A program made the translations under genes and the position numbers. From positions 57,970,001 through 58,034,000 of the forward strand of contig OX597831.1 of the NCBI GenBank assembly GCA_951406725.2: a DNA stretch of 64,000 nt, in the 5' to 3' direction. The DNA is from Octopus vulgaris. Lineage: Eukaryota. A model generated the notes under the pieces. The model did not search any database. It had not been told where the DNA came from and saw nothing but the letters and a program-made list of their open reading frames with translations. Shown here one piece after another: positions 7,820 through 60,900 of the stretch. Every line of letters begins with the position of its first letter. Positions within the stretch are counted from its first letter, which is position 1.

Positions 7820-8005
7820 ATAAGGAGAATTCACAAAAAAACAAAAGACGAAGACAGGTGGTGCAGACAACAAACAGATGTATTAGTATAATGCTTGGGA
7901 AGTGAAAAATCTTTAACATTTCGAGCCAACGCTCTTCCACAGAAAGGAACACAGAAAGAAACAAGGAGAGAAAATAAAGAATGTGTAGTGGCTAGTGATC
8001 TATCA
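7820..8005 (-). mobile_element. Penelope-like short element with a degenerate hammerhead motif, in (TA)n
   Basis: Homologous to 39940-40130; minus strand ctgtgga-agagc...gctc-gaaatgtt. Confidence 0.6.
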
Positions 8006-12394: not shown

Positions 12395-12580
12395 TCTATT
12401 TTAAGAGATGAGGAATTATGTACATTATTTACATTATTTACATTATTTACATTCGACAGATATTTGTCCTCATCTTGTTTGCAGTTAACTCAACCTTTCG
12501 GTTGATATACCCTCCAGCCTTCATCAGGTGTCTTGGAGAAATTTTGAAACCTGGGTTCTCATTCCTAAGATATTCTTCGA

Positions 12581-25044: not shown

Positions 25045-25235
25045 GCGTGTGTATAGTTGGCGATTTTCTTCCTCTGCCTTCCCTTCTTTGGACTTTTTCT
25101 ATATTTCTGATGAAGAGCTCTGCTCGAAATGTGAAATCGTCTTTCTTTTCTTTCCTTCCCTGAGCATCCAATAACACTGTACTTATTCTACGTCCAAGCG
25201 TTGTTGCTTTTTCTTGCTTGTTCATGTTTGGGTGC
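25045..25235 (+). mobile_element. Penelope-like short element with a hammerhead motif
   Basis: tttCTGATGAagagctctgctcGAAAtgtgaaa at 25104-25136; related to the inverse copy at 41650-41850. Confidence 0.65.
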
Positions 25236-31826: not shown

Positions 31827-31962
31827 ATGGTATATGTTTCTGCCTGAATTGGCATTATCAGCTTGACAATGTTCTTAATCTATCTCCAGCTGTCAAGAGG
31901 CTTAGACTTATGCATGAAGAGTTGAACACATTTTTGGCATAGGTAATTTACATAATTTAAAC

Positions 31963-39939: not shown

Positions 39940-40130
39940 TAGGGAGAGTTCACAAAAAAAAACAAAAGGCGAAGACAGGTGGTGTAGAAAACAAACAGAT
40001 GTATTAGTATAATACTCAGGAATTGAAAAAGTCTTTTACATTTCGAGCCTACGCTCTTCTACAGAAAGGGACACAGAAAAAAACAAGGAGAGAAAAAAAA
40101 TGTGTGTAGTGGCTACTGATCTATCATGAT
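39940..40130 (-). mobile_element. Penelope-like short element with a degenerate hammerhead, in (TA)n
   Basis: Homologous to 7820-8005; minus ctgtaga-agagcgtaggctc-gaaatgtaaaag. Confidence 0.6.
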
Positions 40131-40857: not shown

Positions 40858-41474
40858 TTTAGATAGATAGATAGATAGATATATTAATGTATCTGAGTAT
40901 ATACACACATACATATTAAAGATAAAGCATTTGGCATGAACTTTGGTTTTGCATATGGTGATTATTTAGTTTATGCTTCTCATCATCCCTGAAGTGCATC
41001 ATCTTTAAAGATAAGGCATATATCTCCAAATAGAAAAGCTGATGCGAGCACACTTCACATAGTAACCTCAGAAACATTTATTAAAATTACACCCTTAACC
41101 AATGAGACCGATCATTTTCTAAATGACTAATTTTCAAAAAGTGATAGGGGAGATAATCTCAAAATTTTAATTAATTGATTAATTAAAATTGATTAAACAT
41201 GGAATGCTGTGAAGAGTGGAATGAGGTTAACAACTCATCTCAGATTCTTTTATTCTTTTATTTTTTTACTTGCTTCAGCCATTTGAATGCAGCCATGCAT
41301 AGTTATGGAACCATTGCAGATGTCTGCTATAGCGGATATATAATTGGTAAAGAGGACAACAAAGGTTAAGAAATAAGGAAATGATGAAAGAGAAGAAAAA
41401 AGAAGCATATTCCTTTACTCCTGTCCTCTATGTTGTCATTTCTTTAATCTATAACCTTCTCATTTTCCCTATTC

Positions 41475-41530
41475 GTCTCTGATGATGGAATACCCCACAC
41501 TCTGGGATATCCCAGAAACAGCTGTAAGAC
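41475..41530 (+). ncRNA. Minimal type I hammerhead ribozyme motif (Penelope/retrozyme type)
   Basis: Stem I gtct/agac; core CTGATGA 41479-85; 12-bp stem II with two mismatches; GAAA 41515-18; palindromic stem III C-AGCT-G; GTA cleavage triplet 41524-26. Confidence 0.75.
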
Positions 41531-41612
41531 TTTGAATTTTTTTCTAATAATAATAATAATGTGAGTGACTTGAGATGTTTGCTTTGCCTTAATGTTTGTT
41601 GACCTCTTTAAC

Positions 41613-41649
<37 letters not shown>

Positions 41650-41653
<4 letters not shown>

Positions 41654-41850
41654 TAATCCAAACAAGAAAACACAGAAAAAAAAGAAAAAAACACAGCAAT
41701 GCAGGACGTGGAACAATCAAAGTATTATTGATGCTCAGGAAAGAAGGGAAGGAGGGTTTAACGTTTCGAGCGGAGCTCTTCGTCGGAAACAAGGAGAAGG
41801 AAAGATCCCAAGGAGGGAAGACAGAGGAGACAATATTTGAGCTGGTGGTG
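41650..41850 (-). mobile_element. Penelope-like short element with a hammerhead motif (CCGACGA variant), in (TA)n
   Basis: Minus tttCCGACGAagagctccgctcGAAAcgttaaa. Confidence 0.6.
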
Positions 41851-41917: not shown

Positions 41918-42075
41918 CTTCCTTCAGTTTCTGTCTACCAAATCCATTTACAAGGCTTTGGTCAGCCTGAGGCTATAGTAGAAGACACCTGCCAAAGGTG
42001 CCACACAATAGGACTGAACCCGGAACCATGTGGTTGGTAAGCAAGGTACTTACCACACAGCCACTCCTGCACCTA
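41915..42075 (-). mobile_element. SINE family B, 5' half
   Basis: Inverse head ending ccactcctgcacctat, ~100 bp upstream of the exon acceptor. Confidence 0.85.
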
Positions 42076-42176
42076 TATTAATGAAATTTGGATGTTTAAT
42101 TATTTGATTTTTTAATTTACTTAATTCCATGATAAAAATATTAATTGCTTTTGTTTTTTTTTAAATCTCTTTCCAG

Positions 42177-42675
42177 AATCGCCCATGACATTAGCCTGGA
42201 CAGTTTTCCTGATGATGATACTGACGCAGAATTTGACTTCAATCCAAAAGAGCTGGAATTTTACTCTCTGACGCAAAACAAAGAGAAAGAAAGAAAATAT
42301 GATGTTACCGAGAAAACAGTGGTACCGTCATTTCAAGAGAAATCCGATGTCGAGGAATTTACCGGCAAAGATGTCGGAAATTACGGAAGCACAAAAACGA
42401 ATACGACATACGACAAACCAATTTACAAAGCGTCAGACTCTGAAATGGTCCTTCGAAAGAATGAAATCAATAAACAACTGCACAGCAATAGTGATAAAGG
42501 AAACGATAATGGACTCACCAACACAAAAAGTAGAATGGGCACAAGCAACACCACTAACACTACAGCCAACACTTTCACAAACAACACTGTTACCAAGAAC
42601 ACCTATAACAACAACACAACTGCTGCCAATACAAATGGTGCCATCACCACCATGGACAGCAATCGTTACTTGCAG
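42177..42675 (+). CDS. MAPK8IP1: Internal coding exon of a JNK-interacting protein 1 (JIP1/Aplip1)-like scaffold
   Basis: Pyrimidine tract + ttccag acceptor (AG 42175-6); donor CAG|gtaagt at 42675/6. Open frame (R)IAHDISLDSFPDDDTDAEFD...NRYLQ; the start resembles the recalled JIP1 N-terminal RLTHDISLEEFEDED. Phase 2 start, phase 0 end. Confidence 0.85.
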
Positions 42676-45328: not shown

Positions 45329-45480
45329 TTACTTCTTACAGCTGTTTCAGCCTATGGTCAACAGTGAATCTAATTTTTCTTTGCCTATAGATGTAAACAT
45401 ACTAGGGTTGTAGGCATTTAAAAACAATATATATAATACTTATGGGTTAAAAGAACCATAGGCCTCATCAGAGGTTATAA
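45329..45480 (-). ncRNA. Hammerhead-like motif with an extended stem II loop
   Basis: Minus CTGATGA-ggcctatggt...~100 nt...accataggct-GAAAC-AGCT-GTA-aga. Confidence 0.6.
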
Positions 45481-49274: not shown

Positions 49275-49410
49275 TCAGTACTTCCTGCAAAAACAGTAAA
49301 CAATGTTAATCACAAAGAATGGCCCCAGAACACATCTGGTATCAGCAATGAACCAAAGACACCTCGACGGCCACGCAAATTACCTGAAACTCCAAAGACT
49401 AGAAGTAAAT
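49275..49410 (+). CDS. MAPK8IP1: Internal coding exon of the JIP1/Aplip1-like gene (136 nt, absent from the ORF track)
   Basis: ttttcttgttccattttag acceptor; donor AAT|gtaagt at 49410/1. Encodes SVLPAKTVNNVNHKEWPQNTSGISNEPKTPRRPRKLPETPKTRSK, compared with recalled Drosophila Aplip1 RRRRKLPEIPKNKK. Phase 0 start matches the previous exon; phase 1 end. Confidence 0.85.
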
Positions 49411-60359: not shown

Positions 60360-60516
60360 TATTTTTTTTTAAATTCAAGATAATAGAATGCAATTTAAAT
60401 GAAATTTGACTGCTATTTTTTTTTTAATAACTTGAATAATGCTTCTAAAATTGTTCCCTTGATTGGCTAAAGTATCGGTCATTATTAATGATTGCATATA
60501 GTTTCTTGTTATCTAG

Positions 60517-60900
60517 ACCCTCCTGTAAACACAGCACCACGAGAGAAGTCTCTGGCAGAAGAACTTCTCGAAGCTACCCGGCAAAAGCTACCCCTTCTCC
60601 GAGACATAGAAGTCGACAATGACGATGACAACGAGAGCTGCAACTCTGGTGATGTGGAGGTCGATGACGATGACGATGTGTTTCTACCACCAACACAGAA
60701 CGGAGCAAAATACAAGGAGAAGTCTCAGGAAAATCTGTTTGATCGTCTCTTGTACTTTAACATTGCTTCGAGAAATACAAAAGCCTACATCCATTGTGAT
60801 AATCCTTATATCAAAGAAGATTCTTTCCCTGCTGAGAAAAATGGGTCTCGCTCCGCAAATGGTGGAGCTAGAGTGTGCAGAGCAACTTCTGATAGTGAAG
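60517..60900 (+). CDS. MAPK8IP1: Internal coding exon of the JIP1/Aplip1-like gene
   Basis: tttcttgttatctag acceptor; donor AAG|gtaatc at 60900/1. Phase 1 start joins T+AC=Tyr, then PPVNTAPREKSLAEELLEA...YIKEDSFPAE...SDSE, compared with recalled Aplip1 SLADEF and YLMDEDSSPDSE. An in-frame alternative AG lies at 60500-1. Confidence 0.82.

Follow-up and report, generated by a model that had tools for sequence, protein, structure and literature searches.

The hammerhead motif that lies in an intron of a JIP1-like gene of Octopus vulgaris is, in our judgement quite probably, a minimal ribozyme carried by a multi-copy repeat that likely represents a truncated Penelope-like element tail, the copy being predicted to be largely inactive and neutral for the gene. 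In the 64,000-nt stretch of genomic DNA that we analysed (hereafter the window), every element that the original prediction had named for an intact-core sense hammerhead at 41475-41530 was found at its position (Table 1), with the core CUGANGA, GAAA and UH all present. GAAA occupies 41515-41518 and is followed by C at 41519, AGCT at 41520-41523 and GTA at 41524-41526; A41526 precedes the predicted scissile bond, as had been proposed. The palindrome ACAGCUGU covers 41518-41525 and is a candidate for the helix III of a dimer. The two mismatches and the U-A closing pair anticipated for stem II were borne out by the register analysis, which gives pairs at 10 of 12 positions, the mismatches A41489·C41511 and C41493·A41507, and U41486-A41514 as closing pair, without an extra unpaired base. 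A U-A pair at the 10.1-11.1 position probably lowers hammerhead activity.

Table 1. Coordinates of the hammerhead, of the repeat that carries it and of neighbouring features in the window.
Feature	Positions	Strand	Details	Evidence
Type I minimal hammerhead, small palindromic helix III	41475..41530	+	predicted cleavage after 41526	sequence, helix II register, descriptor
Helix I, 5' strand GTCT	41475..41478	+	pairs with AGAC 41527-41530 (4 bp)	
Core C3-A9, CUGAUGA, intact	41479..41485	+		sequence
Helix II	41486..41514	+	12 positions, 10 of them paired; closed by U-A; loop of 5 nt	
GAAA, 8-nt palindrome ACAGCUGU and H17 = A	41515..41526	+		sequence
Perfect 16-nt palindrome	41501..41516	+	predicted competing hairpin taking G12 and A13	repeat search, folding
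Forward body of the repeat	41408..41612	+	pyrimidine-rich 5' part, motif, AT-rich tail, (TA)n end	contig pileup, sequence
Multi-copy upstream piece	41304..41407	-		contig pileup, self-comparison
JIP1-like coding exon	42177..42675	+	residues 15-181 of P0001	AG..GT borders, 100% identity
Second intact-core hammerhead	45334..45473	- (antisense to JIP1)	helix I 2 bp	

The host gene was identified through three exons (42177-42675, 49275-49409 and 60504-60899), all 100% identical to the protein P0001, which bears the source name "kinase-interacting 1-like [Octopus vulgaris]", contains SH3 and PID domains and finds its best matches among solved structures in the SH3 domains of JIP1 and JIP2. This gene is encoded on the + strand and the hammerhead is therefore sense; it lies 651 nt upstream of the acceptor of the next exon, in agreement with the proposed distance of about 650 nt on the pre-mRNA strand. 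Since no 5-mer of residues 1-14 of P0001 was found anywhere in the window, the intron harbouring the hammerhead is probably longer than 42 kb. Exon 49275-49409 encodes a stretch, RRPRKLPE, which is kept in P0002 and P0003 and which we take to resemble the JNK-binding motif of JIP1 proteins.

We searched the window with a descriptor, composed after the motif had been seen, that demands an exact core, a helix II of at least 4 pairs, a palindromic helix III and a helix I of at least 3 pairs. The hammerhead is the single site that it matches in the 64 kb, and 6 of 2000 dinucleotide shuffles match as well; a stricter form (helix II of at least 7 pairs with at most 1 mismatch) misses it. The exact two-motif pattern gave 0 stretches in metagenome contigs and 0 in viral contigs. 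Rfam gave 0 matches at the gathering score and, at E up to 10, 22 matches with 0 hammerheads among them, and the 86-mer bearing the motif folds no better than its shuffles (z = -0.64). The Rfam and folding results would be compatible with a short motif having arisen by chance in AT-rich intron DNA. This reading, the probability of which we consider negligible, is opposed by the rarity of matching shuffles, by the presence of the same 15-nt end within another hammerhead frame (45334-45473), and by the recurrence of the sequence in many contigs of four sequencing runs, where the majority letter improves helix II. The last of these observations effectively refutes it.

These contigs, from four runs with four other organism labels, were mapped onto 40920-41610. 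Between 2739 and 5089 contigs were placed per run (4 of 4 runs), and those of all four pile up to high depth over 41304-41610, the depth being about that of a single copy in 40944-41230 where this part is covered. At 41472-41495 the contigs sum to a depth ~850-1400 times as high as that of the near-identical flank contigs, a ratio that we take as an order of magnitude only, because summed depth is not copy number. The hammerhead thus seen in all four runs as many dispersed copies is not peculiar to JIP1; it sits in a repeat of about 200-300 nt that has many copies in related genomes. Within the window it is a single copy, and no tandem array of the repeat is present there. From the 32 of 16718 pieces that were listed, we took 26 paralogous ones; they differ from the window by 11-19% (median 15%), a divergence bounded by the 80% cut-off, and their starts fall at 41406-41414. 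Members of the family vary in the motif itself: some carry 38-40 extra letters in loop II, and at 41486 a letter other than that of the window makes up 35-51% of the family depth. A plateau of ~130-260 times the single-copy depth runs across 41304-41327 and 41400-41423, and 41343-41370 is an inverted copy of the repeat tail 41588-41615 (86% over 28 nt).

In two runs, contigs link the 3' end of the motif (41530) to sequence like that from 41167 onward (41167-41207), which suggests that a related family with another tail may have left a relic just upstream of the motif. A very abundant SINE-like repeat has copies or fragments at 41918-42080, at 41244-41298 and at ~15 other places, and its depth at 41256-41279 exceeds 12,000 times that of a single copy in the four runs.

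Compared with its family, the copy in the window has decayed. At 41474, 41493 and 41498 another letter accounts for 96-99% of the depth in all four runs. The one at 41493, carried by 100-120 contigs per run (counted up to 128), is the pairing letter of helix II in 97-99% of the family depth, and the window copy has a mismatch there; the mismatch 41493·41507 is private to this copy or to a small minority. Majority departures number at least 2 in 56 nt inside the motif versus at least 7 in 147 nt outside, which is no difference, and in the contigs of the four runs the motif is, relative to the family, kept no better than its flanks. As for the intact core, we calculate that at 4.5-10% divergence age alone would leave the 11-nt core untouched in about 30-60% of copies, and it therefore needs no selection. 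Near-identical contigs of two organism labels extend to 41437, inside the repeat, because of which the insertion in the JIP1 intron is probably shared with those two labels; a contig from the orthologous site spanning the whole motif is absent from the 32 of 16718 pieces listed.

In folding predictions, the bare 56-nt motif gives a helix I probability of 0.8 and a helix II probability of 0.5. In its native context, the predicted probability of helix II falls to 0.07 (41440-41560) or 0.02-0.03 (41400-41620), and that of the competing hairpin 41501-41516 is 0.92-0.97 in contexts of 120-400 nt; once the three majority letters are restored, helix II reaches 0.75-1.0 and helix I 0.7. The native copy is thus predicted to misfold in context, the hairpin replacing helix II, within a nearest-neighbour model that disregards proteins and co-transcriptional order. 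Between two strands, the palindrome makes a stable 8-bp duplex (-11.1 kcal/mol), and this duplex is present in the two-strand fold, in which helices I and II fail to form. The + strand GAAACAGCTGTH occurs once in the 64 kb, so that the window offers no second sense partner for helix III. Because the copy is solitary and predicted to misfold, little or no cleavage would be expected.

These data bear on whether the host could have retained or co-opted this copy, such that, dimerised with a further family transcript, it slowly cuts JIP1 pre-mRNA and thereby tunes splicing or RNA level. The intact core, its sense orientation, its distance of 651 nt from the 3' splice site, the stable duplex formed by the palindrome, an insertion seemingly common to two other organism labels and the precedent of conserved intronic hammerheads in amniotes (PMC6155905) all speak for such a role. 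We nevertheless hold it to be highly improbable, given the private mismatch and predicted misfold, the helices missing from the two-strand fold, a motif no better conserved than its flanks relative to the family and the lack of a sense partner in the window. Further, hammerheads of this class have low activity even when dimeric or trimeric (PMC4209133), and according to work cited in PMC2995048, introns cut by a slow hammerhead were still spliced in mammalian cells. Like the amniote intronic hammerheads, e.g. that of RECK, the octopus motif is of type I and lies in an intron of a protein-coding gene (PMC6155905); however, the RECK-type ribozymes are few, canonical and conserved orthologously, whereas the octopus copy is one of a high-copy repeat and has diverged from the rest of its family. 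It has neither the low copy number nor the canonical helix sizes of the RECK type.

The closest published counterparts of the octopus hammerhead are the minimal hammerheads that Penelope-like elements carry in their terminal repeats and that survive for the most part as single truncated copies (PMC4209133). It shares with them the type I topology, a 4-bp helix I, a long helix II, a palindromic helix III, U-rich 5' and AU-rich 3' flanks and mostly single dispersed copies (PMC4209133); the short helix I and long helix II conform to this type, though weakly populated in context according to the folding. The class consensus has an unpaired base between positions 9 and 10.1 followed by a G10.1-C11.1 pair, with published exceptions (PMC4209133). 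Unlike that consensus, the octopus copy has neither the extra base nor G10.1-C11.1, and its helix II is longer than those of the published Penelope-type motifs (12 positions versus 7-8, PMC4209133). Individual traits have counterparts in the supplement of the same paper, where 4-nt palindromic loops are given: an AGCU loop with H = A in D. willistoni, a long helix II without the extra base in Saccoglossus 2 and a U-A closing pair in S. mansoni 3 (PMC4209133). The parts of that supplement available for searching include the molluscs Lottia and Crassostrea and lack Octopus (PMC4209133). Inverted truncated copies and microsatellite neighbours have been described for Penelope insertions (PMC8557442), a structure into which the inverted tail 41343-41370 and the neighbouring (TA)n fit, while not being specific to the class, and O. 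vulgaris is reported to hold Penelope-like families with an old expansion (PMC13282606). As to activity, Penelope-type minimal hammerheads do not cleave when monomeric and cleave at a low level when dimeric or trimeric (PMC4209133), and a review presents the dimer model for the small Penelope hammerheads likewise (PMC6765202); the premise of the original prediction, that minimal forms need to dimerise through the palindromic stem III, accords with both sources.

The octopus copy also differs from published Penelope-type motifs in that no RT or GIY-YIG frame was found next to it in the window. We scanned 300 of the 307 stop-to-stop frames of at least 45 aa (150 of 150 on the plus strand, 150 of 157 on the minus strand) against Pfam and obtained two weak, unrelated matches and none to RT or GIY-YIG. 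Because no such frame was found, the Penelope-like origin of the repeat is inferred. The absence of a coding frame nearby would also suit another non-autonomous element, either a retrozyme-like monomer or a composite with inverted ends, an alternative that we regard as rather unlikely and under which this copy would still be a neutral relic. The inverted tail at 41343-41370 and the depth plateau of ~130-260 times could mark a subfamily with inverted ends, but inverted truncated copies are already known from Penelope insertions (PMC8557442). Retrozyme-like monomers, for their part, are dispersed and related to Penelope ends (bioRxiv 10.64898/2026.07.22.740005). The octopus motif resembles non-LTR retrozymes, which are known in molluscs (mussel), in its type I topology, in a palindromic helix III too weak to do without a partner and in thousands of copies (PMC7229834; bioRxiv 10.64898/2026.07.22.740005). 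Unlike them, with their tandem repeats and canonical helix sizes, it is solitary and has a long helix II; the window holds no tandem array, and the combination of a long helix II with a 4-bp helix I fits the Penelope type rather than the canonical 6-bp/4-bp arrangement (PMC4209133).

The motif at 41475-41530 is accompanied by others in the window. A relaxed census found 7 hammerhead-like relics in the 64 kb, versus a mean of 0.57 and a maximum of 4 in 60 shuffles. The seven fall into at least three sequence families, and the one at 31861 may be a chance match. With 7 relics per 64 kb, it is no surprise that a long intron holds one intact copy in sense orientation. The second intact-core hammerhead, at 45334-45473, has an 11-pair helix II with a loop of ~95 nt and ends in the same GAAACAGCUGUAAGA as 41475-41530; when both ACAGCUGU motifs and 41040-41250 were aligned, only this 15-nt end was common to them.

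At 41704-41828 (minus) and 25070-25195 (plus) lie two decayed copies of another family, 76% alike, with the features of a typical short minimal hammerhead (extra base, G-C closing pair); the core is altered in one of the two, and in the other the palindrome is broken and position 17 is a G. A third family of ~180 nt is represented by 39943-40126 and 7824-8005, both on the minus strand; both copies are flanked by (TA)n tracts and contain a decayed minimal hammerhead. Finally, the relic at 12454-12580 (minus) combines CUGAUGA, an extra base, a helix II of 5-6 pairs and GAAA, and the repeat around it has three self-matches in the window.

The original prediction had left two outcomes for the motif, namely co-transcriptional cutting of the JIP1 intron or a neutral Penelope relic. 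The second is favoured by the dispersed repeat, the private mismatch and the published architecture; the first is not supported, in view of the predicted misfold, the missing sense partner in the window and the weak activity of the class. By analogy with the published dimers (PMC4209133), two copies of the parent element would pair through the ACAGCUGU palindrome into a shared 8-bp helix III, and the paired copies would cut the tandem transcript after GUA. The octopus copy would then have inserted in the long intron, sense by happenstance, and accumulated point changes, one of which breaks a helix II pair, with the hairpin predicted at 41501-41516 hiding G12 and A13. We infer from this that the copy is neutral for JIP1.

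This kind of hammerhead has been in print since 2014 (PMC4209133). In the literature that we searched we found no description of a hammerhead from a cephalopod or from JIP1, and the words 'hammerhead' and 'ribozyme' are absent from the main text of PMC13282606; repeat libraries and supplements, those of that paper included, may hold or annotate the family. A far-reaching view would be that the repeat represents an undescribed, abundant octopus family of hammerheads, with an 8-nt palindrome and a loop II of 5 to ~95 nt, whose sense intronic copies, that at 41475-41530 among them, could pair between nascent transcripts and slowly cut these in trans, so that a neuronal scaffold gene would come under repeat-borne control of its pre-mRNA; we rate this a very long shot. 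If it were true that copies trans-cut host pre-mRNA, a mobile-element ribozyme would be tied to cephalopod gene control, and for the copy at 41475-41530 the evidence points away from such cutting. At the observed density of relics, chance alone would be expected to place an intact core in sense orientation within an intron. With the Penelope-like relic as the preferred reading, the octopus would join the animals in whose genomes Penelope-type hammerheads are widely scattered.
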